DNA of 64,000 nt from Lytechinus pictus. Taxonomy: Eukaryota. Below, in pieces: positions 3,773-41,503 of this stretch; position 1 is the first letter of the stretch, and each line of letters begins with the position of its first letter. The notes beneath the pieces were generated by a model. The model ran no database searches and was not told the origin of the DNA. It was given only the letters and a program-made list of their open reading frames with translations. Where the stretch lies: NCBI RefSeq assembly GCF_037042905.1, contig NC_087250.1, positions 19,656,001-19,720,000 on the forward strand, read 5' to 3'. Made by a program: the position numbers and the translations under genes.

Positions 3773-5095
3773 AAATCACCACCACCAAAATCAGATTTAG
3801 ATTTGTAAACGGGCACCTGCGCCTAAAAGATTTCAATGTTTTTTGAGTTGCCCCTTACCATAATGTTGACTGTCGATGAACGTATTAATTGTATTTATTT
3901 TTTGTTGCTATGCATTAATATTATATTATAGTTTGAATCAGGGGAGGATCCAGGGGTGATATTCTGGAACACGTACTTTTGTCATAAATCTTGTCATTTC
4001 TCTCCGAGATGTGACACCGCTATGATTGTCACAAATCGGTATTCTGAACATTGTCTTTTCCCTGTCATATCTCTCAAAGTTCCCGCTCATCTTTTCGGAA
4101 GCAATCCAATCAAAATCATCGTTAGTTCCCAGTGGGAGCCCTTCTAACCAATAATAAAGCCCCATGCATGACAGGGGTGAATTATCGGATAGTCTAAACC
4201 ACTTGGTCTACTAATGAGTTCGTCCATTTTCACATACATGTAGTCTAAACTCATTTCGTCTACAACCAGTTCGTCTAATATCCAATTCGTCTAATTCTCA
4301 TTTGGGCTAATAACCAGTTAGGCTAATTTTCACATGGTCTAATATCCAATTCGTCTAATATCCACTTGGTCTAATATCCAATTCGTCCTATGAGCAGTTG
4401 GGCTAAAACCATTTAGTCTAATTTCCAGTTGACCTAACACCACTTGGTCTAATTTCCACTTCGACTAATTTCCACTTGGTCTAATTTTCATTTCGTCTAA
4501 TTGTCACATGGTCTAATGACCATTTTTCTGTCTAATTTCCATTTGGTCTAATTTCCAATTAGTCTAATTTCCACTTGGTCTAATATCCAATTGGTCTAAT
4601 GACCACTTGGTCTAATCGCCAATTGGTCTAATACCCAGTTGGGCTAATCGTCACTTGGTCTAATTTTCATTTGGTCCAATTCACACTTGGTCTAATGTCC
4701 ATTTATTCTAACATAACATCATTCATTATTATACAGTGCATCCCACAAAAAACGAAACCGAGATTTATCGATGATTTATCATAACTTAATCGCAAATACA
4801 ATAGACAAATGACCTACCATTTTAAAGCTTAGAATCTCCTTTTTCATCTGAAATTACTTAGAATATTTCTCATTCACGCATGAGTGAGCAAAAACTATTT
4901 TAAAAGGGGATACCAAAAAGTCACTTGGCGGGCCGTATCTGGGTTTTAAAAAGAAAACCACATTTTTAAAAAGTTCAATATCTGCTCTTTAATTTGATAC
5001 CTCGATTACAGAAAATGGTCAAGAAATAAAAAAGTTCTGGTTATTTGAAATAAGGCTTGAATTTCAATAATTTCATAAAATGAAGAGGTTTTACA

Positions 5096-8000
5096 TATGA
5101 GGCGCCGAATGTACCAATATTATATAGAACAATTATTTGTTATATAATCATTATTTATTAAATAATAACTATTATTTATATATAATTTACATTTTATTTG
5201 TAAATAACTACTATTATATAAAATATCATTTCTAATTATTTATATATAATTCCAAGTAATACTTCATTATTTGTAAATAATAATAGTTCGACATTCCATT
5301 ATTTATAAATAATGATTATTTGTTTTTCATTATTTATAAATAATGATTATTTGTTTTTCATTATTTATAAATAATGATTATTTGTTTTTCATTATTTATA
5401 AATAATGATTATTTGTTTTTCATTATTTATAAATAATGATTATTTGTTTTTCATTATTTATAAATAATGATTATTTGTTTTTCATTATTTACAAATAATG
5501 ATTATTTGTCTTTCATTATTTATAAATAATGATTATTTGTTTTTCATTATTTATAAATAATTTGTTGAGTTTTCCATTATTTATAAATAATGATTATTTG
5601 TTAAATAATGAAAACGTCTACTTCATTATTTATAAATAATTTTTTCGAGTGCACCATTATTCTCATTATTTATAAATAATCATTATTTAATGTTCGAGTT
5701 TTCCATTATTTATAAATAAAGATTATTTGTTAAATAATGAAATATCTACTTCATTATTTATAAATAATAATTTTGTTTCAATATCCCATTATTTATAAAT
5801 AATCATTATTTATAAACAATTTTTACAGTTTGCCATTATATACAAATAATCATTATTTATATACAAATAACCATTATTTATTAAATAATGCCATTATTTA
5901 TTAAATAATGCCATTATTTATTAAATAATGCCATTATTTATTAAATAATGCCATTATTTATTAAATAATGGAAAACTCGCTATAACATGCAAATGTGGGA
6001 CCGCCCATGATATGAATATTCATGATGCGATTTCCTTTTTCGTGATTTTTCTTCACAAATTTTTGTCCATTTCCTCTTCATAATGACATTTCTTGAAGCA
6101 ATTTTCTAGGGATATGGTCTGATTGTAATATTCTTCATTTTCTATATAACTTCGTCTTCGTAGAAATATCAAAAAGTGTAATTTTATACGATTTTTCCTA
6201 CAGTTCACAATCCCCATAGGCGCGCGTGTACGGTAGGGACAACCGGTGAATCGACGGAGTGCTCTTCATCGAAATACTACGTTGGTTGGTCCCCGGAAGT
6301 GGCGGGCGGAATTTAGCCCGAATCCTCGATGGAAGTCGATCAAGTGCATATGAGCTGAGAGAGTGAAATATCAGTGTACTTGTACAGGCCCTTCTACTTT
6401 TTATAAATATTTCTTGTTGCTTTTTTTGTTAAGTTAATTTTTCCTGGTGTAGAGATAAGTTTCAGTTCTAATAATGCACTTCAAATACATTTTGGAGTGT
6501 CTGTTTGAGGCGTTTGGGGCGATTTCACCCTGGCCCCAAAATGCTCGCAACGACAATACGGGGGCATGATGACCCCTAAATTTTTAAAAACTTATTTTTC
6601 TATTGAAAATTATCACAAAATTCACCAAAAGTGTGCACGAAAGCCTTCGTATTTCACTTTTAAAACTCCAAAAAGTGCCCAAATGACAAGCTTGGTCGCT
6701 TCGCTGTGTCGCTTTCAACTTGAGAACGTTTACGCGTCTGCTTCCCCCCCCCCCCTCCGAAAGAAATTCTGTATACGGCCATGCTCTAAAGAGCCTGGCA
6801 CATTGATTTATGTATACTTCATTTTCATTATTTTTATCTCATTATCATCATGGCCTTACGCAGAATTTTTTCCGGGGGGGGGGGGGGGGGTGGGGGGAGC
6901 AGGACGCGCGTAAACTTTCTCATAAAAATCTTGAGAAAGCGAAGCGACCAAGCTTGTCATTTGAGCTTGGTCGCGTCGCTGCATGTCTCGCTTTCAAGAT
7001 TTTTTTGAGAAACTTTACGCGCGTCCTAGCTGCCCCCCCCCCCCCCCCCGGTAAAAATTCTGTGTAAGGCCATGATGATAATGTGATAAAAATAATGAAA
7101 ATGAAAAGTACATATAAATCAATGTGCCATATGCTCTTTTGAGCATGGCTGTTCACAGAATTTCTTTCGGGGGGTGGGGGCAGACGCGTGTAAACGTTCT
7201 CAAGTTGAAAGCGAGACAGCGAAGCGACAAAGCTTGTCATTTGGGCTTGGTCCCGTGGCTGTCTCGCTTTCAAGATTTTTTTGAGAAAGTTTACGCGCGT
7301 CATGCTCCGGCCCCGGCCCCCCTGGAAAAAATTCTGCGTAAGGCCATGTTGATAATGAGATAAAAATAATGAAAATGAAAGTATACATAAATCAATGTGC
7401 CAGGCTCTTTAGAGCATGGCCGTATACAGAATTTCTTTCGGAGGAGGGGGGGGGGGGGAGCAGACGCGTAAACGTTCTCAAGTTGAAAGCGACACAGCGA
7501 AGCGACCAAGCTTGTCATTTGGGCACTTTTCGGAGTTTTAAAAGTGAAATACGAAGGCTTTCGTGCACACTTTTGGTGAATTTTGTGATAATTTTCAATA
7601 GAAAAATAAGTTTTTAAAAATTTAGGGGTCATCATGCCCCCGTATTGTCGTTGCGAGCATTTTGGGGCCAGGGTGAAATCGCCCCAAACGCCTCAAACAG
7701 ACACTCCAAAATGTATTTGAAGTGCATTATTAGAACTGAAACTTATCTCTACACCAGGAAAAATTAACTTAACAAAAAAAGCAACAAGAAATATTTATAA
7801 AAAGTAGAAGGGCCTGTACAAGTACACTGATATTTCACTCTCTCAGCTCATATGCACTTGATCGACTTCCATCGAGGATTCGGGCTAAATTCCGCCCGCC
7901 ACTTCCGGGGACCAACCAACGTAGTATTTCGATGAAGAGCACTCCGTCGATTCACCGGTTGTCCCTACCGTACACGCGCGCCTATGGGGATTGTGAACTG

Positions 8001-9025
8001 TAGGAAAAATCGTATAAAATTACACTTTTTGATATTTCTACGAAGACGAAGTTATATAGAAAATGAAGAATATTACAATCAGACCATATCCCTAGAAAAT
8101 TGCTTCAAGAAATGTCATTATGAAGAGGAAATGGACAAAAATTTGTGAAGAAAAATCACGAAAAAGGAAATCGCATCATGAATATTCATATCATGGGCGG
8201 TCCCACATTTGCATGTTATAGCGAGTTTTCCATTATTTAATAAATAATGGTTATTTGTATATAAATAATGATTATTTGTATATAATGGCAAACTGTAAAA
8301 ATTGTTTATAAATAATGATTATTTATAAATAATGGGATATTGAAACAAAATTATTATTTATAAATAATGAAGTAGATATTTCATTATTTAACAAATAATC
8401 TTTATTTATAAATAATGGAAAACTCGAACATTAAATAATGATTATTTATAAATAATGAGAATAATGGTGCACTCGAAAAAATTATTTATAAATAATGAAG
8501 TAGACGTTTTCATTATTTAACAAATAATCATTATTTATAAATAATGGAAAACTCAACAAATTATTTATAAATAATGAAAAACAAATAATCATTATTTATA
8601 AATAATGAAAAACAAATAATCATTATTTGTAAATAATGAAAAACAAATAATCATTATTTATAAATAATGAAAAACAAATAATCATTATTTATAAATAATG
8701 AAAAACAAATAATCATTATTTATAAATAATGAAAAACAAATAATCATTATTTATAAATAATGAAAAACAAATAATCATTATTTATAAATAATGAAAAACA
8801 AATAATCATTATTTATAAATAATGGAATGTCGAACTATTATTATTTACAAATAATGAAGTATTACTTGGAATTATATATAAATAATTAGAAATGATATTT
8901 TATATAATAGTAGTTATTTACAAATAAAATGTAAATTATATATAAATAATAGTTATTATTTAATAAATAATGATTATATAACAAATAATTGTTCTATATA
9001 ATAATGGTACATTCGGCGCCTCATA
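5096..9025. mobile_element. 3.9 kb palindromic non-autonomous DNA transposon, IS3EU-like
   Basis: Termini TATGAGGCGCCGAATGTACC / GGTACATTCGGCGCCTCATA; 6-bp TSD TTTACA (5090-5095, 9026-9031), single at the equivalent site of the intact host copy; arms near-identical for >1.6 kb. TAY...RTA ends with a 6-bp TSD fit IS3EU as described in Repbase. Confidence 0.85.
5296..5970. repeat. AT-rich subterminal tandem arrays (31-bp and 20-bp units), mirrored at ~8230-8825
   Basis: Unit CATTATTTATAAATAATGATTATTTGTTTTT containing an 18-bp palindrome; CCATTATTTATTAAATAATG x5 at 5871-5970. Confidence 0.9.
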
Positions 9026-9840
9026 TTTACAGGCTAGCGTTCAAACTCACTCGACACTCCGTTTTGTTGACGATCAGCCATGCATTAAGTCTTTTGTTAC
9101 CGTGCGATAGCTTCAGTGGGAAACCGGTGAAAACACGTTTATTTAATGAAATTATGGAAATACAAGCATTGTTTCGAGGGATCATAACTTTTTTACTACT
9201 TGACCATTTTCTGTGATTTAGGTATCAAAGAAAAGAGAAGATATTGAACTTTTTAGTCATGTGATTTTCTTTTTGAAATTCAGATACCCCCCGCCAAATG
9301 AGTTTTTGGCATCCTTTCTTCGAATTGTTTTTGCTCGATCATGCATGAATAAGGAATAATCTAAGTAATACCAGATGAAAGAGGAGATTCTAAGCTTTAC
9401 ATTGGTAGGTCATTTGTCTATTTTATTTATGATTAAGTTATGATAAATCATCGCTAAATCTCGGTTTCGTTTATTCTGGGACGCACTGTATATTTGATCT
9501 ACAATTAACAAGTATGGTACAGAGTGGATAAATACCATGCATCAGCAAATACATGTCGCCAGGATCCGGAGGGGTAGAGCCGGTAGGGCTGGTGGGCGCA
9601 AAACCTCACCGGGAGGGAATATCGATGACGCGCTCATCAAATGAATTATTCTAATCAAATATAATTATTATAATTAGGCCTATATATAGGCCTATGTATC
9701 GATTATATAGATAATGATTTTGGACGGTACATTTTGGATGGTACGTCTTGTGTGCAACGGTACGAATGTTTGACATTCAGCCTCTCATTCGCTCGCGTAC
9801 AACAAGCTAAGCAGGCGTTGTACAATAGAGCATATACATA

Positions 9841-21232: not shown

Positions 21233-21919
21233 TAAGTGTAAACACGGTAATTGATGCGCTTAATTACAAAGAGAGACAGGGAGCTGTGAAGGACTTCAGA
21301 GGAGAAGTAGAAAAAGAAGGAAAACAGAGAAAAAAGGAGGAATTAATATGTAGGGCCTAACTAATTGTAGCATGAAAAAATAATCTTGAAAATTGTCATG
21401 GATGATGAGTGAAACTAATACCACAATCTAATCTAAATAATATCATTATTCTTGACATTCAGTCGGCAGGGTATCGGGATATTTGGTACTAAAAGATATG
21501 ACAAAATTTATGACTGCTACCCCCTGTCATAACTTTTGTCATATCTTTTGCTTGTATAAAAGGATTACGCGCATTTAAAGCCGCGTATTTTTGGTGCGCG
21601 CTAAAGAGATGAGACGAAACTTATGACAATTTTTGTGACAAAAATTATGACATCCACCAGAATACCGATTTTGTCATATCTCTGAGAAAAGATAAAATAT
21701 GGAGAAAAGACAATGTTCAGAATACAGCCCCAGACTTTTCAAGTGAGGGAGGGGGAGCACATTTTTCCGAGGAAAAACTTGACAAGCAAAAATCATTTCG
21801 TCTACGAAAAAAAAATTGACAAGGAAAAAAAAAGAAGTTCTACACTTTCTAATAGTAGACCGGCCAAAAGTCAAAAAGTGCTCTAGATAAGGATTCGACG
21901 GCAAAATTTGTTAATGCTT

Positions 21920-24330
21920 GGCATCCCAGCTAAAAGTCTTGCAAAAATACCCAGGAATAGCGTACGGCCGGATGCCAAGCGCAATTTTGCGTGAAAGTGT
22001 CATTTTTAGCGTAAAAACTGAAAGAATGTCGAAAATCACGCATTTTGATATTTTGACGGATTATCATTATATTTTTAATTATCTTTGATATGAAATTATT
22101 TTTATTCAGAGTTTCAAATTATAAGTCTCATAAATATGCATTTTAAATTTGAATATTACACACACACATATAGCACAGGGAAACATAAAACCGCGATTTC
22201 CTCCAAATAAAAGTTTGTGAAAACTATCAATAGTTTAAAGTTTATATACGCAGCTTAAATTCTTCGATTTAACTGCGTTTATCCATCAAATGTATAGTAA
22301 ATGTCCTAATGTCACAAATATTAAAAGAATGTTCAAGTAAGATGGAAGATATCTCACTTTATGTTATCCGAAAGGAGACAATGTGCATTTTACCAGGTGC
22401 GCATTTTGAAAGAAAAATTGAAAATACCGTACATTATGTACATAATTACATGTATAAGTACATACTAAAGCGAGTTTTTAATTACATGTATAAGTGCATT
22501 CTAAAGCGAGTTTTTAATTGGATAGCACAATTTGTCAATTCTTTGCATCCAAGCTAAAAGTCTTGCGGAAGTCCTGAGGAATAACGTACGGGCGGATGCC
22601 AAGCGCAATTTTGCGTGAAACTGTCATTTTTAGCGTAAAATCTGAAAGAATGTCGAAAATCACGCATTTTGATATTTTGACGGATTATCATTATATTTTC
22701 AATTATCTTTGATATGAAATTATTTTTATTCAGAGTTTCAAATTATAAGTCTCATAAATATGCATTTCAAATTTGAATATTACACACACACATATGGCAC
22801 AGGGAAACATAAAACCGCGATTTCCTCCAAATAAAAGTTTGTGAAAACTATCAATAGTTTAAAGTTTCTTACGCAACTTAAATTCTTCGATTTAAAAGCG
22901 TTTCTCAATCGAATGTATAGTAAATGTCCTAATGCCACAAATATTAAAAGAATGTTCAAGTAAGATGGAAGATATCTCACTTTATGTTATCCGAAAGGAG
23001 ACAATGTGCATTTTACCAGGTGCGCATTTTGAAAGAAAAATTGAAAATACCGTACATTATGTACATAATTACATGTATAAGTACATACTAAAGCGAGTTT
23101 TTAATTACATGTATAAGTGCATTCTAAAGCGAGTTTTTAATTGGATAGCACAATTTGTCAATTCTTTGCATCCCAGCTAAAAGTCTTGCGGAAGTCCTGA
23201 GGAATAACGTACGGGCGGATGCCAAGCGCAATTTTGCGTGAAACTGTCATTTTTAGCGTAAAATCTGAAAGAATGTCGAAAATCACGCATTTTGATATTT
23301 TGACGGATTATCATTATATTTTCAATTATCTTTGATATGAAATTATTTTTATTCAGAGTTTCAAATTATAAGTCTCATAAATATGCATTTCAAATTTGAA
23401 TATTACACACACACATATGGCACAGGGAAACATAAAACCGCGATTTCCTCCAAATAAAAGTTTGTGAAAACTATCAATAGTTTAAAGTTTCTTACGCAAC
23501 TTAAATTCTTCGATTTAAAAGCGTTTCTCAATCGAATGTATAGTAAATGTCCTAATGCCACAAATATTAAAAGAATGTTCAAGTAAGATGGAAGATATCT
23601 CACTTTATGTTATCCGAAAGGAGACAATGTGCATTTTACCAGGTGCGCATTTTGAAAGAAAAATTGAAAATACCGTACATTATGTACATAATTACATGTA
23701 TAAGTACATACTAAAGCGAGTTTTTAATTACATGTATAAGTGCATTCTAAAGCGAGTTTTTAATTGGATAGCACAATTTGTCAATTCTTTGCATCCCAGC
23801 TAAAAGTCTTGCGGAAGTCCTGAGGAATAACGTACGGGCGGATGCCAAGCGCAATTTTGCGTGAAACTGTCATTTTTAGCGTAAAATCTGCAAGAATGTC
23901 GAAAATCACGCATTTTGATATTTTGACGGATTATCATCATATTTTTTATTATCTTTGATATGGGATTATTTTTATTCATAATTTCAAATTATAAATCTAC
24001 TAAATATGCATTTCAATTTGGAATATTACACACACATATATGGCAATATGACATACAAAAATCGTGATTTACTCAAAATAGAAGTTTGTGAACATTATCA
24101 ATAGTTCTAAGTTATTTTCTTCGATTGAAATTGGTTCATCTATTGAATATCGATCGTTTCTAATGTCACAAATATTAAAAGAACTTTCAAGTAAGATGGA
24201 AGAAATATTTTGCGAAAGGGGGCATGCAAAATTTAGCGGGGAGGGGGGGGGGGGCATTTTGAATGTAAAATTGAAGATACTGTAAATTATCAACATAATT
24301 ACATGAATAAGTACATACTTAAAACGAGTT
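21920..24330 (+). repeat. 623-bp tandem repeat (~3.8 units), ~1.5 inverted units at 25370-26310
   Basis: Near-identical ORFs recur at 22309, 22932, 23555 (period 623) and inverted at 25705-25917. Confidence 0.92.
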
Positions 24331-24711
24331 ACAAAATTTCTGGCCGCAACTGCCTCTTCCCCCCCCCCCCCTCCCCCCGCTGCCTAAGGTCATGTATAGT
24401 GTCCGAAAGGATTACATGGAGCTGAAAGTGTCCCGTTTTCAAGATAATATACCACTAGCGTAAAGGGGGGGGGGGGCAGACTGCCCCCCGACGAGTCACA
24501 ACTCATGCAGGAGATGTACCCCTGCCCCCCCCTGGCTCTTTTAGTCCTGCTCTGCTATGCATGCAGGCGAGACATAAAATAGGTATTGCCGTGGCAACGG
24601 CCATATTTGTTTAGACTTTGATAATCCAATAATTGAAGTAAAATGTAGATTGACAGAGTAGTTTAAAAATGCTAATTCGATCGTTTTATTCATACATGTT
24701 TATTTTCTATG

Positions 24712-24935
24712 CACTAGCGTACCTACGGGGGGGGGGGCAGAGGGGGCAGTCTGCCCCCCCCCTGACGAGTCCCAACCCATGCAAAAGACGTATCCATGCC
24801 CCCCCCCCGACGAGCTTGAAGACCTTTTTTGCCCCCCCCCCCCTGACGAGCTTGAAGACTTTTTTTTGCTCGTCAATTTTTTTGGCCGACGGTTTTGCAC
24901 CCCCCCCCCTGTGGAAAATCCTAGGTACGCTACTG
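24712..24935. mobile_element. MITE with 8-bp TSD
   Basis: CACTAGCGTACCTA ... TAGGTACGCTACTG; TSD TTTCTATG (24704-24711, 24936-24943); relatives at about 15878, 17308-17595, 24452. Confidence 0.85.
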
Positions 24936-26407
24936 TTTCTATGATTTTGGATATAGATATTCCTACAAAATTAATATTACCACGGTAACGGCAAATTAAT
25001 TATCAGACCTATTTATGAATATCGCCACAGGTAGATTTTACGTTCAGCACCAATTAATTCGCGGAAATAGCAAGAAGATCGAACTCTACAAAAGTAAACA
25101 TAATCCTATATACTATCATGACGAGTATCGCACTGATTAATATTAGTATGTGCAATATAGATGTAATATTGTGCGCTGTTTGTATTTTATCAGAAATGCG
25201 CATTCGATAAATGTACATTGTTATCTTTCGCATATAACATAAAATGATATATCTTGCATCTTATTTCAACATTTGTTTTCACTATATGTGCCATGACAAC
25301 AATTATTATGTATTTATTCGGTTAGCGCTAAAATTGACGAAATTGAGATGCAGAACACAAACATTATACTATTGATAGTTTTCACAAACTATTATTTTTA
25401 GTAAATCACGATTTTATATTTCATATTGCCATATATGTGTGTGTAATATTCCAAATTGAAATGCATATTTACTAGACTTATAATTTAAAACTCTGAATAA
25501 AAATAATTCCATATCAAAGATAATCACAAATATGATGATAATCCGTCAAAATATCAAAATGCGTGATTTTCGACATTCTTTCAGATTTCACGCAAAAAAT
25601 GATACTTTCACGCAAAAGTGCACTTGGCATCCGCCCGTACGTTATTACTCAGTATTTCCGCAAGAATTTGAGCTGGGATGCAAAGAATTGACAAATTGTG
25701 CTATTCAATTAAAAACTCGCTTTAGTATGTACTTATACATGTAATTAAAAACCCGCTTTAGTATGTACTGATACATGTAATTATGTACACAATGTACGGT
25801 ATTTTCAATTTTTCTTTCAAAATGCGCGCCTGGTAAAATGCACATTGTCTCCTTTCGGATAACATAAAATGAGATATATTCCATCTTACTTGAAAATTCT
25901 TTTAATTTTTGTGGCATTAGGGCATTTACTATACATTCGATTGAGAAACGCTTTTAAATCGAAGAATTTAAGTTGCGTAAAAAACTTTAAACTATTGATA
26001 GTTTTCACAAACTTTTATTTTGAGGAAATCGCGGTTTTATGTTTCCCTGTGCCATATGTGTGTGTGTAATATTCAAATTTGAAATGCATATTTATGAGAC
26101 TTATAATTTGAAACTCTGAATAAAAATAATTGCATATCAAAGATAATCAAAAATATTAAAATAATCCGTCAAAATATCAAAATGCGTGATTTTCGACATT
26201 CTTTCAGATTTTACGCTAAAAAAGACAGTTTCACGCAAAATTGCGCTTGGCATCCGGCCGTACACTATTCCTGGGTATGTTTGCAAGACTATTAGCTGGG
26301 ATGCCAAGCATTAGCAAGCATTAACAAATTTTGCCGTCCAAAGTATAAAAAATCGTTTTGGCCGGTCTACTATAAGGGGGACACTACTGTTTTAAAGACA
26401 TTTTTAC

Positions 26408-31106: not shown

Positions 31107-33634
31107 CTGGGAAGAAAGGGAAAGGGAAAGGAAAGAAAAAAAGGGGGAAAGGGAAGGGAAAAGGGAAAAGAAAACTAAGAAAAAACATAAAAAAGGAAAA
31201 ACGGAAAGATAACGGGAAAAGGAAGGAAAGAAGAACAAGTGAGAAAGAACAATTCTCTCCGATATACAAATACATTAGCATGATTAGTAAGACAGGGAAA
31301 TAAATTAAAGATGACAAAAAGTCAAACAAAAGCGGGAAATAATGGCAGAATGGAATTAGCCGAAATCTAAATTGGAAAATAAAGAATAGGGACAGGATGA
31401 CGTACACTACCGGGCTGCCGAGGATTGAGATAACGAGCGGGAAGAAAAATGGATGGTATATATAGCATAATGTCGTATGAAAGTCTATCATAAACTTGCT
31501 AAATCTCCAAAAGCTCTGTCCAAGAGTCAAGACCCCGTGCAGTGGGGGCTCTTCATCTGTAACCTTTAATGGGTTCTATAACGGGCCCCTATATGGACCC
31601 TTCCTGTATTAAGCTTTACGTTGAAGCACTGGCGTACCGGGGGGATGGTTCCACAGCCAAGGGGAAATAAAAGAAAATAAAGGAGGCAGCGAAATGAGAT
31701 GAATGAAAAAAATATATATGACATGATATTTGCTATAATGATGTAAAAATCCATAATTAGAATTTTATTTTAAAAGGCCATTTTTTTCTGGCCCGCTTCG
31801 CTCGCTGGCGACTTTTTACAAATTTTCCCACATTTGCTATGGTGTGCCCCTCGCAATATTTTGATGATTACGATACACAACTGCATTGAATTTATGTGTT
31901 GTGTGAAAGCTATATAAATATACACGCAATTTGATTAAAATAAGTGGCCATCTGTAAGGTTTAAAATGGCTTTGATATCAAAAGGTTCCGGGGCTCTGCC
32001 CTGGACCCCACCCATAAAGCACTGTTATATGGATGAGTTTGGACCATGGCCCCCAAAGGTTCTACAACCAAACAAAAAAAAATGAGGAAAGAAAGGAAAG
32101 TGTATTATATTTTTCTGAATATCACGTTAAAATCTATCTTCATGTAAGATTCTCATGAAAAGGTAATTTTTTTATCTCACTCGCTTCGCTCGCTCGGGAC
32201 CTATATTAAGCTACTTCTGGCCACAAGCGCCATACTCGGCCCCCTCGAGCATATAGAGCTTCGCCCTGATGCTCACAATCATAACAAAAATCCTGATCAC
32301 CGTGGCGTACAAAAAAGAGAGAAAAAAGGAAAGAGAGGAGGGTGAAGTGTGATATCGTCTTTTTAACATCATGTCAAAATCTATCACAAAATTTGATTTT
32401 TGCAATAAAAATGTCAAAATTTTTGCTCGCTCGCTCGCTTATTTATATATATATTTGCCCGATACGCCATATCGCCCCCTCAAAGATTTTGCCTTATGAC
32501 GCCATTGCCTGTTCCATGATATGACCGGGAAATTTTTTGCTCTTGCCCCCCCCCCCCCCCTGGCCACCGACCCCTGTTACGCCGCTGGTTCAGGGCCAGC
32601 AATGTGTTCATATCTACAGAAGATTTAGCAATGTGACGATATCTTCAACACTGTGGACATCTCTACAGCGAGCGTTTTCACAGTGTGTCTACATAGTGTA
32701 CTGTGTGGACATCGATCTACACTGCCAAAAATTATCAAATTTAACACTGTGAAGATAATTTCACACAGTGTAATTGTTCACATTGAGCTCGCATAGTGTA
32801 CTGTGCATGGTGGAGCGTTGCTGTTTATTTTTTGGAACTGTTTCAGTTGCGCTTTTTCCGACACTGTTTGTCTTCAAAGCATTGGTGTGACTCTTTAAAA
32901 TACGGTTATACCAAACAGCCTAAACATATTGAAATTGTGATTAAAAAGTGTCATACATAATGTTCCTTTACCTTTGTTCTTTAGGTGTAAAATATTATTC
33001 AATCTTAAGTTTTGGGCGTCACCTAGCTATAAAGTGGAGCGCAAAGCGTTAGCATGGTCAAAATTAATCATCCTTTGTTCGTAAAATTGGCAACAATTAT
33101 TAATTTGCTATTAATTTTCAAAATTTGACAAAAATTAAGTATGAATAAAATATGAGCCAAAATTTAATCATTAAAGCAAGGCTCCACACAAACTTTTTTT
33201 CTTGGTGGCCAGGGGCCCGTTGCAGAAAGAGTTGCAATCAATTGAAACTCTAAAAATCATGCGCGACTTGATTTTCAACCAATCAACAGCGTGCATTTGG
33301 GACTTGCGATTGATTTGTTGGCTTGCGTTTAAACCAAAGACCTTATAATATATTACTAGACCGAAAGCTGCGTGCGCGTTCAGCACAAAACAAATGAGAT
33401 TAGGCTCCGCCTACCGCGATCATTTGAAGACAAAAATAAGCCCTCATTGACATTCATGAGCATGAAGATATTCATAATCCGGCCTTTTCATTGGCTAAGA
33501 GTGTCATTAATACGCGATTTCCCCGATTCTTTGTTATCGATACTAGTGGTATCGTGTTACAGAATTAATTATTCATTTGACCTCATTACGTCATCTAATT
33601 TATTCATTCTGAAACTTTTCTTTCCTCACACAAA

Positions 33635-36600
33635 ATGGACCTACGAACACTCCGGTGAGTACGTATAAATTGATATAACCACATGAATTCAGTGAACTAT
33701 TTACACATTTCACACTGTATTTTGTGATCTTAGGTTATTTGTTTAACAAATTAGAGAGTTTGCTATTAATCTTCTGTTAAAGGAAAGCAGAATTTGGTCT
33801 TTGAAATTGAAGTTAGATTGTCATCGTCGCTCAGTGCAGCCTGTATGTTGCTTGCAGTGTTGTGGTTATGCCGTTAAGGACGTTCCACAGTTATGTTGGT
33901 GCGCATTATGATCTGCGCATAGTTTACACTCTGCGCGCTGACGTCACAATGGATGAACAGGTGATTAATTAGCTGCGGGTATGTGCTGATTTTTCTCATC
34001 TTCTGCACTTTAACTGCAGATCCGATGCGTTATTTCATGAAGCTAAAAAATGGAATTATTCCATGGACCATTCAAAAAAAGATTCTCTACAATTTCAAAA
34101 TACTTTACTCTGCAGTGCTGCCAAGAATCACGAATATTACCCCGAGTTTGAATAAATGGTAGAGTGGTTTTGATTTTTTCTTCACATAGATACAAAGCAT
34201 TCAGCGCACTTTTGGTGTTTTAAAAAGCACATTTGCTCTAATAAAAATACTGATAGTTTAAAAACAAGCACATGAACCCCTATTTTTTAATGTTTGTTCC
34301 TCTTAGGTATACCTTCCTCTACAACTCTACAAATTTTGGTGAAAATGACATGGATTTTGAATAAAGTGCAGCATTTATTGTACTTTTGTAGTTTGTTACT
34401 GAAATTTCACATTTTTTAGATTGGGATTTTGTTATCTTTCACGTCATTTTTAAGAACTGACAGTGCTGTTAAACTTAAAATTGCAAACAAATAGCACTAT
34501 AAATATATTCTCCATTCTTACGATACAATTATTAACTCTCTTGCGAAATTTGATGACTTTTTCATGTATTTCGACTGAGTAATACAGGTTTAAACTCATT
34601 GTAGTAATCTTGGGCAGTCTAAAAATGCCAAATTCTTTTGAATGCGCAATTCTTAAGAACATCAATTTGGGTGAACTTTGAAGTTCTATAGCAAAAAATC
34701 AAGCACATGGACCTATGTTAATTTTTGCATATTTCGAATATTAAGGTTCTAAAGTATCTATGTGCAAAGTTTGGTGAAAATGACATGGATTTCACTTTAA
34801 CTGTGGAACGTCCTTAACCACATGTATTTTGTACGGGCTCCTAGCCGGCTGGGAATATCGAGAGATAATCGGGCTGGTTTGGTTCACCTCCAACAAGGAC
34901 CAACCCACGATTGATTAAAACAAGAAGAATGAGGCTTCTTTTTGTACACTGTAACGTTAGATCTAGAGGGAGATCTGCATCTATCTTCAGTAGATCGAGA
35001 CTCGGTCAGGAATAAACTGTGAAGCAGAGTATGGATGAAGATACGCCTGTCATTGTGTCAATCCTCAGTCCTCACTTTGTTTCAGATATCAAATTTATTT
35101 TGCATAACTTCAGGCTTCTGCATTTAGCCCCCACCCATTTTAACTCTTATTGTTATTTATAAATATAGTTAGACTCGGTCTTAGAAATAACATGCTGCTC
35201 TGCATGTTTGTCTTATTATCAATAGATCTAGGGCCTAGATCTTCTTAATCCTAGGCCCTACTTACTTTATACTTAGATCTATCCTAGGCTACTTTACTTT
35301 TATTTATTCATCGATGCTATCAAGACAAGAGCTAATAGGCCTACCTAATTCAAATCTAGTCTAACTTATACTTTCCCAACCCTCGACACTTACCCCCAGG
35401 GCTTATGATCTAGGTCTGTAATTTAGGCCTAGGTTCTAGATCTAGGTCTGGGCCTAAACGACTCCATTTACATGTGTACGAGTATGACTGTCAGTGGACC
35501 AAGGACTAACTTGTTAGATCTAGATCTACTCTTGGTCAATAATGGCAATGAAGTCTTAGCCAGGAATAAAAGTCAGAGTCAGACATCAAAAATTTATAAA
35601 CCGATATAGGGTCTAGATCTCGGTTTAGAACCGAAGCTTTACTTTCTAGGTCTAGATAGATCGAGAGTCCATCGTTAGTCTAGATCTACTAATCTAGACC
35701 TAATTTAGATACATGAATGCTGTCGTACAGCACTGAGTCTTGTTGGACTAGATCTAGACTAAATAGATCTAGACCTAGTGCATGAGATTATGAAATTATG
35801 TTAAAATCAAATGAAATAAGATTCGGAAATAAAAAGATCCAGATTTTTTTTTTTTTTTTGGGGGGGGGCAGACATGTGAAAAAATTTAGAGAAACCTAAA
35901 ATTCAGAAAGCGAGGGCCAGAAGCGACAAATATTACCTAGGGCCGTTTTGTGCATTTTCTAAAGTAAAATTGAAGGATGTCATGCAATTCTCTTTTTGAT
36001 GAAGGTTTCACATTTCAGCTCTTACCCAAACCCCTCCCCCTATACATACGGCCATGAAAAAGATCACTTCTTATTATTGTTCTCTTTTCTTTCACAAACA
36101 GGTTGAGTTTGAAGAACAAGAAAAACAGTACAGGTCTACCTATATGGTTCAAGATGATGATCATAAGTGCATGCATCATTTTGCAGATTCTCATCCAGGT
36201 ATAAAACTTAAACTAACCCATACAAAATTACAGATACATTACATGCATTGAATGTTAACCATGTTTACATTAAATAAAAATAATCCGAGCCACAAAGAGG
36301 TAGGATCTGTAATGAATATAGACACTTTTTAAATATACAGGCTCTCGAGTCTAAAATAGAACCAATGCCAAAAGTTATGTACCTTGAGCAAATTTATAAA
36401 ATACCGGTAAGGTCATGTCCTTGATCTACTAGTAATTAAATGGCCTTTTTATTTCCTATTTGTTTTAAACAAAGCAATATCTATTTTCCATATTTTACAA
36501 AAAATCATTTTATTCATTCTTTAGTGTGATATTCATATTTTATATTTGTAGATTTACGATTTTTTTTAAATCTTGTTATTTTACATTTTGTCCAATAGGA

Positions 36601-37213
36601 TGATGCAGTTTTACAATTTCCATGGAGGTGATTGATGATGATAAATAATTGGTGAAGTAGGCCTAATAGAACAGCGACTAGACCACAAAGAGAAATACAA
36701 CCTACAGCAGTTATATGAGTGAGTTAATTAGTGAATATTGTTAATAATGGAGGTTGTTCACATTTTTTTGGCAACAAATAGACCTGCCTTTGAAAAACCC
36801 ATTTCAATTTTGTTTTTAGATTATAGTTAGTGTCGTTTTTTAATCACAGATCAAAATATTCTGTGCAACAAAACATATCAACTTTAATTCTGACTATTTA
36901 TATAATTTACATATGTTGATTCATATATTCATATTTATGAGAAATCTCTGACATTTTTTCATAGAGTACATGTAGTTATAATGGAGAGTGGTATGCAAAC
37001 TGCATAGAACAGGTTTCAGTGATATGCTTTATAGAAGTACAAGTTTATAATTAGTAGAAGTAAGATTTCCTGTTATGTGTTGAAAAATCATATATATGTA
37101 TAGTCTCACTTTTCTTAAAACGATAAATCACGACAATTTAATTTAAATTCATTGATTTTCTTTCTCTATTTTTTTCAATCTGCAGGACTGGTGTAACAGA
37201 TGTTTTCATTTAA
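33635..37213 (+). CDS. Putative spliced microprotein ORF (exons 33635-33654, 36102-36198, 36599-36627/36631, optional 37186-37213)
   Basis: CAAAATGG start, GT-AG boundaries with pyrimidine tracts, compatible phases; MDLRTLRLSLKNKKNSTGLPIWFKMMIISACIILQILIQDDAVLQFPWR(TGVTDVFI)*. Coding status unproven. Confidence 0.4.
33878..34813. mobile_element. Kolobok-like element
   Basis: TTAA|GGACGTTCCACAGTTA ... TAACTGTGGAACGTCC|TTAA. Confidence 0.88.
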
Positions 37214-38535
37214 GAAATCCAACAATTCAAGAGTCTGACTTACGAACCACTTGATGAAGATGGAAAAGGTTTTTTTTTCCAAGTCCAATTTTTCAACAAA
37301 ACAAAAAAATTATTATCACAACCCCAAATTCATGACGTATGAAATTTCTTGTTGATTTTCATTAAAACTGGTTGCAAAAGGAGAAGTTATAAACATACAA
37401 ATAGGAGCGGCGGAGTGAAGTTGAAAGTGGCAGGGACATAGGGAAAATGCTGTATTACGTGGAATTTTTAAGAAGTTGCGAGCGAGCAAAATTTTGACAT
37501 TTTAAAAAAGAAAATCTAAAATATTCAGAATGATATATTTCACCCTTTTCTCTTTTTTTTTTTGGGGGGGGGGGGGGGGCAAGAGTCCTTCAAGCCCCCC
37601 CCCCCCTCCATCTGTACGAAACTGCTTATATACCCCCACTCGTGAATTATTAAACTTAATGCACAAAGGATTACCTTCATAAGTGCATTATCGAAATGAG
37701 AATATTGTTTTCTTGTTTCAAAGGGCAATCGTCATGGTGGCCATAAAACGGGTCCTTCTCAGGTGAAAGGGGCACAGAACAAGTTCTTTAAGAGCACTTT
37801 TCTTGGGTAAAAGGGGGCAGTGATTCGAGAAAGGGCACTTACAAGAAGGCGAGGAAGCACTCTTTAACACATGAAACGGGCCCTCAGATGAAAGGGCACA
37901 GAACATGTTCCAGGGGGGGGGGGGGCACTTTGGGGTAAAAAAATTGCATACAAGGAAGAGCACTTGGTAACACCTAAAACAGGTTCTTGTCAGGTGAAAG
38001 GGACACAGTACACGTTCATGAGGGGGCATTTTTCTTGCATAAAAAGGCACTTTTCAGTGCTTAAAGAAGTAGGGGGAACTGTGCCCCCCCCTCCCCAGGA
38101 TCGCTGCCCCAGCATACAAACAAAATATTCTTTTGGTTCAAAGTATTAACATACGCTTAAGAAAAAGGTAAAGCTTAATCCTCTGATAATGTGATATTTT
38201 ATTATGGCTAATTAATAAAATTCACCACTAACCAGAGAATTCCTTTATGTCTTTCATTTGTGTTCATATAGTATTTGTACAGAGCTAAAATGAAAGGGAT
38301 TTGGAATTTGCAAAATTCAAAATGAGATGAAGATCGAGAGAGGGAAAGAGTGATGAGAAGTGGATTAAAAAGAGATGAGAAAGAAATGGAGGGGCACATA
38401 TGAAGAGATAATTTAGAGGGGGGTGGTAAGAGAGCTAGAATGTGGGAAGTAGGAACAAAAGGGGTGGAAGAGAAATAAGACGAGATTTATGGAAACCAGG
38501 AGACAGATAACAAGTGGGAAAAGAAGAAGGAAATA

Positions 38536-39362
38536 TATGAAGAGTTTAGTTGCAAAAGGGGTTAGGGCCACTTTGGACCATTCCGAGAAAAACCATGTTT
38601 TTATTCTCACTTATTGCAATATTCTTATGAGAAACTAAATTGTCATGATGTACTACTCTATCATGTGAACATAAAATTGGGTATAAAAGAAATCTACCCG
38701 TCTTCAATTTTTTTCTATATACTTAAAAAATATATAATTGTGTACCTAACCCCTTTTGCAAGTAAATTGAAGTGAATCCAATCTCTTTTGATTAAAAAAG
38801 TGATTTTTTTTTGCCACTTCCATTCACGTTTTCATTTGAATTTCAAATTTTCTTTGGTATCATCAGAGTGACTGAAAATTTAGAGGTTTAGAGAAAGAAA
38901 ACAATAAAATATATGAAAAATGGACCTAACCCCTTTTGACAAATGAGTTCTTCAGAAGAGTTTAGTTGCAAAAGGGGTTAGGTCCACTCCAAGAAAATAA
39001 TTCTTTTTTAATTCTCCCATATTGCAATATTCTTATGAGAAACTGAATTTTCATGATACCCTACCATGAGAACATGAAATTGGGTATTAAAGATATCTAC
39101 TTGTCTTCATATTTTTTAAGATATTATTTTCCAAAAAAAGTCTGTGTGGACCTAACCCCTTTTGCAACTAAACTGAAATGGACCTAACCCCTTTTGAAAA
39201 AAGGTGATTTTTCTTTGCCATATTAGTTCACTTTTTAATAGGAATTTCAACTTTTCTATGGTATCATATTATATATAGCTACTAAAAATCTTTACATTAA
39301 GACATAAGAATCAAGTTCGATGAAAAAAGGACCTAACCCCTTTTGAAAATGAGCTCTACATA
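38536..39362. mobile_element. Head-to-tail dimer of a ~415-bp MITE
   Basis: GAAGAGTTTAGTTGCAAAAGGGGTTAGG begins at about 38539 and again at about 38955; each unit ends CCTAACCCCTTTTGA...GAG(T/C)TCT. Confidence 0.8.
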
Positions 39363-41503
39363 TGTAGGAGAAAGGCGGCACAAAAGAATTTTGAGTGGGA
39401 AAATGATTAAATGGAAAAAAACAGTAAGAAATGCTGGAGAATAAAGGGGACAGGAAACGTATTAAACATGATAAATTGGGGCCCGTTTCATCATGAGTTA
39501 CAAGTATAGTAATTACGATTTAGGGATGGCAAAAGCACTAGAGACCTCTTTACCTAATCACGACTTGATCTGCTCTTTTCATCTTCCCTTTTGGAATTAG
39601 CAAAGGCCTATAAGACGCAATACAAACAATGCTTTGTTTATAAGTGATATCGCTTGTGATATCGATACTTTATAGAGCGCAACGTATCGTCTCAGATTTG
39701 CGCTTGCTTGATTCGCTGAATCCTTCGCGTCACGAGCGCGTAACAAAATGAATACATTAATGAATTTGCCAAGTTGACCTTTGTCATTGCGCTGATGTGC
39801 GTATTGTCTAATACACGTACAAAACCACAGTTGACGAGGGAGCATCGTACGAAATTAATATTAATGAGGGCTTATTTTAGCTTCTAATGGATTAAACAAA
39901 ATGGCGGTAGCTTCGGGGGCTTGGTTTAAACGCAACTCTTTCTGCAACGGGCCCCTGATCAATCCACCAAAATAATTAATTTCTTCTTTTTGATAGCCCG
40001 CAAAGCAAACTTAGTGGCTCTAAAACAATAGAAAACATATATTACAATTTATCAAAACTTTGGTAGCCGAACAGGGCTACCAAGTTGGGGCTTTTACAGA
40101 AGTCTGGTGGCCCAACTCTCATTTCTGGTTGCCCCGGGCCATAGTACTGCTAATGTCAAGCCCTGATTAAAGGATGAATTTATTGAAAGGTCGCCAATTA
40201 ATTGACATTTTTAAACTTGGAATTTCTGTTTTCTGTTTTTTTTTCATCGATCTGTTAATTTAGAGTGTGTATAATGACTATGACTATGATTAGCTCATGT
40301 TAAACGGTTTTTTTTATTATTTAGGAATGATATTATAGCACCATAAGGTATAGCTAGAATGGTTTCAGTTTTTATGTACGTTTTTCATTTGCGTCATTTG
40401 TAATATTGCTAGGAGTCAGGATAATGATAAATTGCAGTAGTATCATTGACTATCCCGTTTTTACGCTTTCTTAGCAATCAGGTAATTCATTTTTTTTGGG
40501 GGGGTGGGGGTGCTGGGAGAGCCACATATGTTATAAACCATGCGAAACACCCTCTGAAAATAAGGTAATTGGTATGCTAAAATTTAGAGACTTGACCAAT
40601 ATCTATACTTAAAAAAATCTTTTCAATTTTTTAATGATTTTTTTTTTCATTTTTTCTTCTGACCTATATATGCTTTTTGTTCCATTTTACTTTATTTTTC
40701 TCGTTTTGAATTGTGTTAATGATTTGGGATATCAAATATGTTGGAACGAATAATTTTTATGTAATATAATTCGTACTCTTAGTAAATAAGCTTCCATTAC
40801 TTAACTTGGCGATATTTATTTTGTAAAATTTTATACTTAAGTCTAGTATGATATGCTCAATGATAATTATATCCTTAATTTCCTTCATAAATTTTGTTGA
40901 ATTTTGTATTTACTATGTCAATGATATCATACATCTTAATTTATATTTCACAGCTATTGTTTTGTCTATAGGATAGTTTTCACATTTCGTCAATAAAAAA
41001 AAATGAATCCGGTACTAGTCACCATTCTTTGAATCACTATTGCCTGTTTCGGCCGGAGAGCAATGGATTTGGTCCACTGATCATGCTGATTCTATTGTTC
41101 TCTGGCTGAGGCAGGTAGTGCTGAGTTTGGGAATTGTGACTGGTAGTGTATTTTATCTCTAAACAATTTTGTATTAATGATAATTCTGATTTTAAATGTT
41201 ATTGAATTCACTCATTACTGTACATTACCCAAGTTACTCTTTTATCTATTATGTATATATTGTTATTTTATGTTAACAGGACCAGGCTGAAAAACAGTTA
41301 ATCTGAGCCTGTTATCCTGTATAAAGATATTTTAATAAATAAATAAAATAAATAAATAAACTATAGCTTAAATCTATACTTCATTATAATTGCAGTGACC
41401 ATTTTTTTTTGGGGGGGGGGGGGGGCTTGTCAATTTTTAATAGATATGTTTAAATCGTTTCCATCGGGCCCCTGGTGGGCTACTAAGTATGGTACAATCT
41501 TAC

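Follow-up and report, generated by a model that had tools for sequence, protein, structure and literature searches.

Non-autonomous, internally deleted elements are described in the P superfamily, both for the Drosophila P element, whose terminal inverted repeats (TIRs) measure 31 bp, and for zebrafish THAP9-type elements, whose TIRs measure 13 bp (PMC7776569). A target bias of P towards GT....AC with A/T at -3/+3 is reported together with the target motif GTNCGNAC of hobo (PMC3276498), and P dimers separated by an 8-bp spacer are reported together with tandem dimers and arrays of hobo (PMC5932611). Among KDZ transposons, Zisupton is multi-exonic and has TIRs and 8-bp duplications of the target site (TSDs), and Kyakuja, reported from fungi, has CA..TG ends, no TIRs and 7-bp TSDs (PMC12730594, PMC9297572). 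The definition of the multicopy Pack-TIRs of animals demands TIR ends as well as a known copy in the host from which the cargo derives; one of them, Ssk-FB4 of Drosophila, encodes a membrane protein with peptide and selection evidence (PMC8277862).

In the window, a stretch of 64,000 nucleotides of Lytechinus pictus DNA, positions 33335-39923 are one member of family 1, a young family of non-autonomous DNA transposons (Table 1). About 150 dispersed copies of the family are present in the genome, with a median length of 5.9 kb among the 58 end-paired copies on C1-C7. At all ten loci with both ends sampled (this copy and nine others) the TSD is identical on the two sides and measures 8 bp, not 9 bp, and its sequence differs at every locus, which bears out the 6.6-kb insert of the preliminary description and its expectation of further loci with both termini and distinct TSDs. 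The duplications are biased towards GTNNNRAC, with T at position 2 in 15-16 and A at position 7 in 19-21 of 29 flanks. Each end starts at the same base and shows 98-99% identity over all 40 scored matches; the left-end motif has 201 matches against 6 in the control, and the exact right-end motif 213 against 0, family 1 accounting for 74 of the first 100. The termini agree over CAA/TTG only, 3 bp at the tips, as had been noted, and form no TIR. A subterminal inverted repeat of 88% identity, missed in the preliminary description, lies further inside. The CpG observed/expected ratio (o/e) reaches 1.35 and 1.59 at the two ends, compared with 0.36-0.54 in the interior; the CpG-rich patch described at the right end stands, and the AAAATGGCGG within it, then taken as promoter-like, is part of a terminal motif common to a sister family. 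The element contains no transposase ORF, its longest stop-to-stop ORF being at most 111 aa.

Table 1. Features of the family 1 copy and its surroundings (window positions).
Feature	Position	Strand	Remarks
Host MITE, left part, insertion target	33210-33326		TIR 33210-33235
Left TSD GTTTAAAC	33327-33334	+	direct repeat, 8 bp
Whole family 1 element	33335-39923	+	6589 bp, nested 936-bp MITE included
Left terminus, CANAGAC...TAGACNGAAAG design common to sister family	33335-33367	+	
CpG-rich promoter-like left region	33335-33634	+	o/e 1.35 over 33335-33660
Subterminal inverted repeat, left arm	33433-33457	+	core 99 bp from left end
Predicted exon 1, coding part	33635-33654	+	ATG to phase-2 donor GTGAGT
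Nested MITE	33878-34813		TTAA duplication 33874-33877 / 34814-34817
Exon 2	36102-36198	+	97 nt; donor used in RNA
Exon 3	36599-36718	+	120 nt; spliced in RNA; stop codon 36629-36631
Exon 4	37186-37268	+	acceptor used in RNA; 3' limit a possible donor only
Separate repeat bounded by inverted repeats, two ~415-bp units of ~75% similarity	38539-39360		
Subterminal inverted repeat, right arm	39854-39878	-	core 46 bp from right end
Right terminus including AAAATGGCGG	39897-39923	-	motif almost exactly as in sister family
Right TSD GTTTAAAC	39924-39931	+	direct repeat, 8 bp
Host MITE, right TIR	39932-39957		26 bp

The insertion lies inside a host MITE, as first described: perfect 26-bp TIRs bound the host, and reads of the unoccupied host are plentiful, the joint 33326/39924 being present in all four runs. 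The TTAA-flanked nested MITE is private to this copy, occurring at the same place in none of 29 other left-end loci. The number of ~415-bp units varies among family 1 copies, and the repeat is absent from some.

The sister family, family 2, consists of about 55 copies that have the end design and the first splice donor in common with family 1 and an unrelated interior, between which blastn and tblastx detect nothing above chance. In both families the donor GTGAGTAC, preceded by CG, is located 320-380 bp inside the left end. Families 1 and 2 stack at common sites: of 135 family 1 junctions, 5 have a family 2 end no more than 200 bp away, where 0.008 would be expected. Two stacked junctions, the L086 array and L004, have 8-bp spacers; the others have spacers of 0-3 bp or are located inside an end.

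The P superfamily is the leading guess for this pair of families, though a tentative one. CA...TG ends are a P-like trait and are found here, together with the 8-bp TSD, the GT....AC target bias with A/T at -3/+3, subterminal inverted repeats at unequal spacing (cores 99 and 46 bp from the left and right ends in family 1, 162 and 44 bp in family 2) and dimers with an 8-bp spacer, the last also a trait of hobo. Family 1 differs from P in lacking a TIR, in an interior unrecognisable as transposase, and in that no P-type transposase was found between such ends. hAT and KDZ are weaker candidates, about equal to each other, and a superfamily outside these three is slightly less likely again. The likeness to hAT, through hobo, comprises the 8-bp TSD with T at position 2 and A at position 7, the target motif and the tandem dimers and arrays; the T/A pattern does not separate hAT from P. 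Unlike hAT elements, family 1 has no short TIRs, and the 60 kb around each listed end contain none of the 33 matches to the hAT dimerisation domain (PF05699) on C1-C7, out of 62, all of which are at least 63 kb away. As for KDZ, a multi-exon KDZ gene exists in the same genome (one found, 2/6 candidates), more than 300 kb from listed family ends. The TSD of family 1 equals that described for Zisupton in length, but the TIRs are absent; its TIR-less CA..TG ends resemble those described for Kyakuja, with a TSD of 8 bp instead of 7 bp.

No autonomous partner was found among the 4 examined of about 10 long copies. The copy at C3:55.20 Mb is lengthened by a nested gypsy-type gag and a MITE, that at C14:13.69 Mb by a nested foldback and that at C3:76.17 Mb by an unrelated insert with no ORF above 109 aa, and the one at C13:28.48 Mb is a family 1 element that sits within an end of family 2. 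Two variant left ends proved to be a truncated stub, on C1, and a chance match. For a THAP/P transposase, PF21788 has 25 matches, and the 18 on C1-C7 all lie more than 600 kb from listed family ends; a P-like ORF of 959 aa on C4 has no family ends in the surrounding 6.7 kb, and the KDZ gene has no sequence in common with the element. With neither an autonomous partner nor a parent gene found, P-like, hAT and KDZ are thus all still candidates.

The transposase-less, mobile and multi-copy character proposed for the element is supported, and so is a transcription unit inside it that is spliced. The joints 36198/36599 and 36718/37186 are seen in reads at a low level, which supports the predicted exon 2, the acceptors at 36599 and 37186, and the expectation of reads spanning 36198/36599. 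The ATG at 33635 and the GTGAGT donor after 33654, noted about 300 bp inside the left end, are retained in all 30 left-end loci; the joint 33654/36102 and the donor at 36627 are not among the 15 joints listed of 120. Exon 3 uses the donor 36718 in RNA, not 36627, so that the ORF ends at the stop codon 36629-36631 with 49 aa, and the 57-aa form proposed earlier loses its support. A contig ending at 33656 was discarded as evidence for the exon 1/2 joint, since a SNP at 33626 explains it equally well. The five splice dinucleotides checked are all intact in 21 of 22 other copies spanning them. At 36131, all ten reads of run X19 have the family allele G and none the private C of the copy in the window, so the RNA reads are not evidence for expression of this copy itself. 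The sense bias of the reads points to putative promoter activity in the left end, and the spliced transcript may alternatively be read as a lncRNA.

Family 1 is probably a young non-autonomous cut-and-paste DNA transposon that is mobilised in trans and whose spliced passenger is incidental. A trans-acting DDE transposase would bind the subterminal and terminal motifs, pair the two unlike ends and insert the element with an 8-bp stagger. An autonomous ancestor is the probable source of the promoter at the left end and of the first splice donor; the downstream exons would be passengers, copied because they are located between the ends, and most likely represent what decay has left of a gene, captured or ancestral. 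The 49-codon ORF would then be open only incidentally, without being maintained. The idea of a relic gene has no homologue behind it, and a frame test for such a relic gives an equivocal score difference of ~4.5 bits; the 43-codon open run of exons 3 and 4 is unremarkable (P=0.15).

It is very improbable that the joints stem from host transcripts that run through copies in introns, or from processed copies of DNA, rather than from an element promoter. The low depth, the intronic reads and the weak antisense reads over parts of the element's right third are compatible with such an origin, but the exon 2/3 junction reads are all sense (seven and two in the two stranded runs), read depth across exons 1-3 is almost wholly sense, and intron 2 is kept in all 23 other aligned genomic copies. 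An aid to the element from transcription, splicing or the RNA itself, with exon sequence irrelevant, is unlikely as well; promoter and introns would in that case keep the CpG-rich ends open or shielded from silencing. This would fit the CpG ratios of the ends, the splice-site retention and the left promoter-like region and donor kept by both families despite their unrelated interiors. However, splice sites are retained no better than would be expected of young neutral copies (intron substitution 1.6-2.9%), the conservation of the ends is partly an artefact of selecting loci by end similarity, and common ancestry simply explains the common donors. The RNA level is also very low, and none of 15 Rfam matches reaches the gathering score.

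A little less likely again is a Pack-type mobile gene for a single-pass membrane peptide of 47-49 residues, and the topology attached to it, with the basic N-terminus inside and one helix, is equally doubtful; the peptide would act in trans, so that broken copies would still move. The ORF with a hydrophobic stretch does exist in its 49-codon form (best 19-residue Kyte-Doolittle mean 2.07), with a strong ATG context and exon phases compatible without alteration. Under plain Markov shuffling, 2.5% of trials yield an ORF of 49 codons or more that starts at the fixed ATG, and 0.015% one with an equal hydrophobic stretch, a naive chance that favours the peptide and weighs against an incidental ORF. 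On the side of an incidental ORF, when the codons of the acidic alternative frame of exon 2 are permuted, the frame first described is open in 71% of cases, and in 1.2% of cases it also has a stretch that is equally hydrophobic. The spliced RNA is sense-stranded in two runs, the frame is unbroken in 29 of 42 copies in the portion sampled, including one diverged subfamily that retains it despite a 6-nt deletion, and Ssk-FB4 offers a precedent as a multicopy Pack-TIR membrane protein (PMC8277862). Against the peptide, a frameshift or a stop breaks the ORF in 13 of the 42 copies, and four frameshifts are multi-copy (L019/L025, L007/L023/L064, L062/L079 and L109/L113). Constraint is not detectable at the low power of the tests: 12 non-synonymous substitutions at 106 sites and 4 synonymous at 23 sites give no synonymous excess (p=0.32), and coding and intron variation are indistinguishable (p=0.25-1.0). 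An apparent conservation of exon over intron disappeared when the columns next to gaps were left out and the count was made on distinct variants. Low power, and the fact that a trans-acting product need not be conserved in each copy, also count against the incidental-ORF view. Besides the exon 1/2 joint missing from the listed ones, junction reads amount to ~0.8 per million records in X19 with all copies summed, and the exons of the sister family are unrelated. A stop well upstream of a used junction is a likely signal for RNA decay, and here it lies 87 nt upstream of the next one used.

No homologue of the ORF appears in a word-indexed protein library queried with two frames, or with HMMER, for the first-described frame, among 1.84 billion representatives of uncertain eukaryote coverage; the best ESM Atlas values, 0.78 and 0.79, are at chance level, and Pfam returns DUF997 alone, below the cut-off (E 0.03). 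The protein queries were unspliced and 20-48 aa long, two of them intron-padded, and these blank results are therefore weak. With its broken copies, multi-copy frameshifts and similar exon and intron variation, the membrane microprotein of the preliminary description is unsupported, and its proposed checks by ORF retention and, at low power, dN/dS speak the same way; a functional product of the 49-codon ORF is putative and improbable. An exon 3 30-mer with up to three mismatches has 98 genome matches, only some of them tied to element ends, and the 7 diverged ones sampled resemble family copies. It identifies no parental host gene outside the element, although one below ~90% identity would escape. 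A C17 copy whose three changes are all silent in one exon 3 frame was considered as a coding parent and dismissed: it is a divergent member of family 1 that has a frameshifted exon 2 and is followed by a family 2 element. From the Pack-type proposal, then, the multi-copy mobile element holds, while a parental host gene was not identified in this weak search.

The likeness to Pack-TIRs as described lies in a transposase-less element whose gene-like interior has moved to many sites with distinct TSDs and, as is often the case for Pack-TIRs, is transcribed; Ssk-FB4 also encodes a membrane protein, here a putative one. Family 1 differs in having no TIR ends, no identified parental copy and ~150 copies rather than a few, and the peptide and selection support described for Ssk-FB4 has no counterpart for the 49-codon ORF. 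That an undescribed TIR-less, asymmetric-ended DDE lineage, its non-autonomous families retaining promoter and introns, has spread a translated gene for a single-pass membrane microprotein to ~100 intact sites is improbable; such a mobile, intron-containing, trans-acting microprotein family would be far larger than Ssk-FB4.

The literature searched holds no account of such an end design, and the families may be catalogued in Repbase or Dfam. Even if the peptide has no function, two young TIR-less families that move precisely on unlike ends would escape TIR-based annotation, and they form a natural system for studying the pairing of asymmetric ends by a transposase and the cause of the stacking of sister elements on each other's ends. 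Translation of the peptide, if it occurs, would make this a rare example in which DNA transposition has amplified a gene for a microprotein. In conclusion, an end that is CpG-rich and promoter-like comes with a strong ATG or donor and with several splice sites in about 200 copies, which can thereby seed chimeric transcripts in host genes.

The family 1 copy in the window splits a small MITE with 26-bp TIRs; these TIRs are perfect, and the uninterrupted form is frequent in reads, which confirms the nested insertion proposed in the preliminary description. The 8-bp TSDs proposed there are likewise precise: at all 10 loci from which both ends were retrieved, the window copy among them, the duplications are identical within a locus and differ between loci, with the consensus GTNNNRAC and A or T three bases outside. 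Searched against the 812-Mb assembly, each end gives 40 scored matches, 98-99% identical and sharing the same start or stop base, a cut-and-paste signature, and establishes the element as multi-copy. The exact right-end motif occurs 213 times in the genome (0 in the control) and the left-end motif 201 times (6 in the control). The first 100 right-end rows divide into 74 of family 1 and 26 of the sister family, and scaling this split gives about 155 and about 55 copies, respectively. For the 58 paired family 1 copies on contigs C1-C7 the median is 5.9 kb, which the window copy exceeds because of a private, TTAA-flanked MITE of 936 bp, presumably Kolobok- or piggyBac-like. Stop-to-stop frames within the element reach at most 111 codons, in agreement with its description as transposase-less.

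The two ends are unlike. The termini pair over CAA/TTG alone, as previously described. Inside them lies a subterminal inverted repeat (25 bp, 88%), with 99 bp between its core and the left end and 46 bp on the right side. The sister family (~5.2 kb; loci L086, L085 and L039) has the same left-end design, CANAGAC...TAGACNGAAAG, a nearly identical right terminus and a related 23-bp repeat core located 162 bp (left) and 44 bp (right) from the ends, with the same first donor, CG|GTGAGTAC, ~380 bp inside the left end. Its interior, which contains a duplicated internal exon-like block, has no above-chance match to that of family 1 by blastn or tblastx. Since the right terminus is shared in this way, the motif there, formerly read as promoter-like, is primarily a conserved motif of the terminus. 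Both ends are CpG-rich and have weak antisense reads, so the motif may also have a promoter role. The antisense-biased depth in the right part of the element could reflect an inward right-end promoter or cross-mapping from repeats.

The two families are also stacked upon each other. On C1-C7, 5 of 135 family 1 junctions lie within 200 bp of a sister-family end, against 0.008 expected, and at the stacked loci (L004, L028/L085, L039, L048 and L090-L101; G000 contigs C3, C7, C13 and C17) family 1 is positioned at or inside sister-family ends. The spacers vary between 8 bp, ~1-3 bp or almost none, and a TSD inside the end. For P and hobo, PMC5932611 reports double insertions in which 8 bp separate the two copies.

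Features of the window and of other loci (G000, the assembly; C, its contigs; L, single loci)
Feature	Position	Observation
Family 1 copy	33335-39923 (+)	bordered left and right by GTTTAAAC (direct repeat)
Exons 1 (predicted, coding part); 2; 3; 4	33635-33654; 36102-36198; 36599-36718; from 37186	
ORF stop	36629-36631	
Private MITE	33878-34813	TTAA duplication, GG...CC ends; further copy in flank of L014; deep read coverage, both strands
Antisense-biased reads	37558-38253; 39414-39877	weak depth (<=3), two stranded runs
Foldback	5092-9029	large, near-perfect; arms 799 and 808 nt, 100% complementary; 31-bp AT-rich arrays
Inverted repeat	4730-9492	encloses the foldback
Repeat units	21893-26317	623-bp units, direct array and inverted orientation; arms up to 959 nt, 92%
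Palindromic insert	L062:5828-8901	at least 3 kb; nested within a copy of family 1; arms 98.5%; C2H2 zinc-finger ORF
L063	G000:C1:37903500-37913499	KDZ/Zisupton-type gene with several exons; matches to KDZ, CxC and B-box-like domains
L087	G000:C4:26167200-26173900	P-type transposase frame, 959 codons; long acidic repeat N-terminal part
Second P-type locus	C21:9248908	score and frame length equal to L087's
L086	G000:C9:23018500-23024300	three tandem sister-family units; 8-bp spacer at the junction seen
L027	G000:C2:51611392/51611393	two family 1 copies head-to-tail, no spacer
Cluster around L027	near C2:51617130-51617166	head-to-head pair

Family 1 resembles P elements in having subterminal repeats, ends that are unequally spaced and dimers with an 8-bp spacer (PMC7776569), but P elements have TIRs, which both families lack. 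The target motif cannot tell P from hobo (PMC3276498), and Kyakuja has CA..TG ends without TIRs and 7-bp TSDs (PMC12730594). On these grounds, family 1 is assigned to no transposon family; its mode of action is closest to that of non-autonomous P-type elements. The literature searched contains no account of such ends. No transposase for family 1 was found in the genome searches, long copies and leads examined. Profile matches in the genome number 25 (P-type), 2 (KDZ) and 62 (hAT), and those on C1-C7 all lie more than 60 kb from any listed family end. Four long family 1 copies considered as autonomous partners contained nested elements or unrelated inserts, and two further promising leads toward a partner or parent failed.

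RNA from three raw runs, sampled to 6%, 6% and 25%, together with a contig set, was mapped at 90% likeness, and the joints are supported across two organism labels and three studies. Exons 2, 3 and 4 are spliced together: the GT-AG joint 36198/36599 is spanned by 7, 2 and 26 reads in the three runs and by one contig, with 9/9 reads sense in the two stranded runs, and joint 36718/37186 by 0, 2 and 17 reads and one contig. The predicted splicing thus stands at 36198/36599, while the exon 3 donor is 36718 rather than 36627; joints 33654/36102 and 36627/37186 are absent among the 15 joints listed of 120. Intron 2 is kept in all 23 other aligned genomic copies, and read-through as the source of the joints is very improbable. 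All copies taken together, run X19 yields ~0.8 junction reads per million records. At position 36131, 10/10 X19 reads have the family base and none the private base of the window copy, so these reads give no sign that the window copy itself is active. That the act of transcription, or the RNA itself, has a role is doubtful.

Under the observed splicing, the ORF comprises 49 codons with a best 19-residue hydropathy of 2.07. The idea of a functional microprotein comparable to Ssk-FB4 (PMC8277862) draws support from a plain shuffle from a fixed ATG, in which a frame this long arises in 2.5% of trials and one this hydrophobic in 0.015%, from exon phases that fit without any change, as described, and from one diverged subfamily that retains the frame through a 6-nt deletion. 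It is nevertheless unlikely, since the frame is broken in 13 of 42 copies (5/24 near, 4/7 diverged and 4/11 partly seen), with two copies scored as intact, one despite a stop two codons early and the other despite mutations in two acceptors. These translations used the window exon 1, which is nearly invariant across 30 left-end loci. Each of four frameshifts recurs in two or three copies, which means that lineages with a broken frame went on transposing. Nor is there a synonymous excess: 24 aligned copies, the near ones picked by likeness to the ORF region of the window copy, have 12 non-synonymous changes over 106 sites against 4 synonymous ones over 23 (p=0.32, low power), and the coding sequence varies no differently from the introns (p=0.25-1.0, low power). 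Protein searches found no homologue. Read in its other frame, exon 2 is acidic, with many GAA/GAT codons. When these codons are permuted, the proposed frame stays open in 71% of cases and equally hydrophobic in 1.2%, 80 times the naive figure, which makes it plausible that the basic-then-hydrophobic peptide stems from an older coding sequence read in a shifted frame; this relic idea is itself tentative, with P=0.15 for the downstream open run. The headline microprotein is unsupported.

Family 1 is probably mobilised in trans. A DDE transposase would read the subterminal and terminal motifs and move the element, whose promoter and first donor would descend from an autonomous ancestor, with the downstream exons as passengers and the ORF incidental. 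A TIR-less family pair with verified splicing merits specialist attention.
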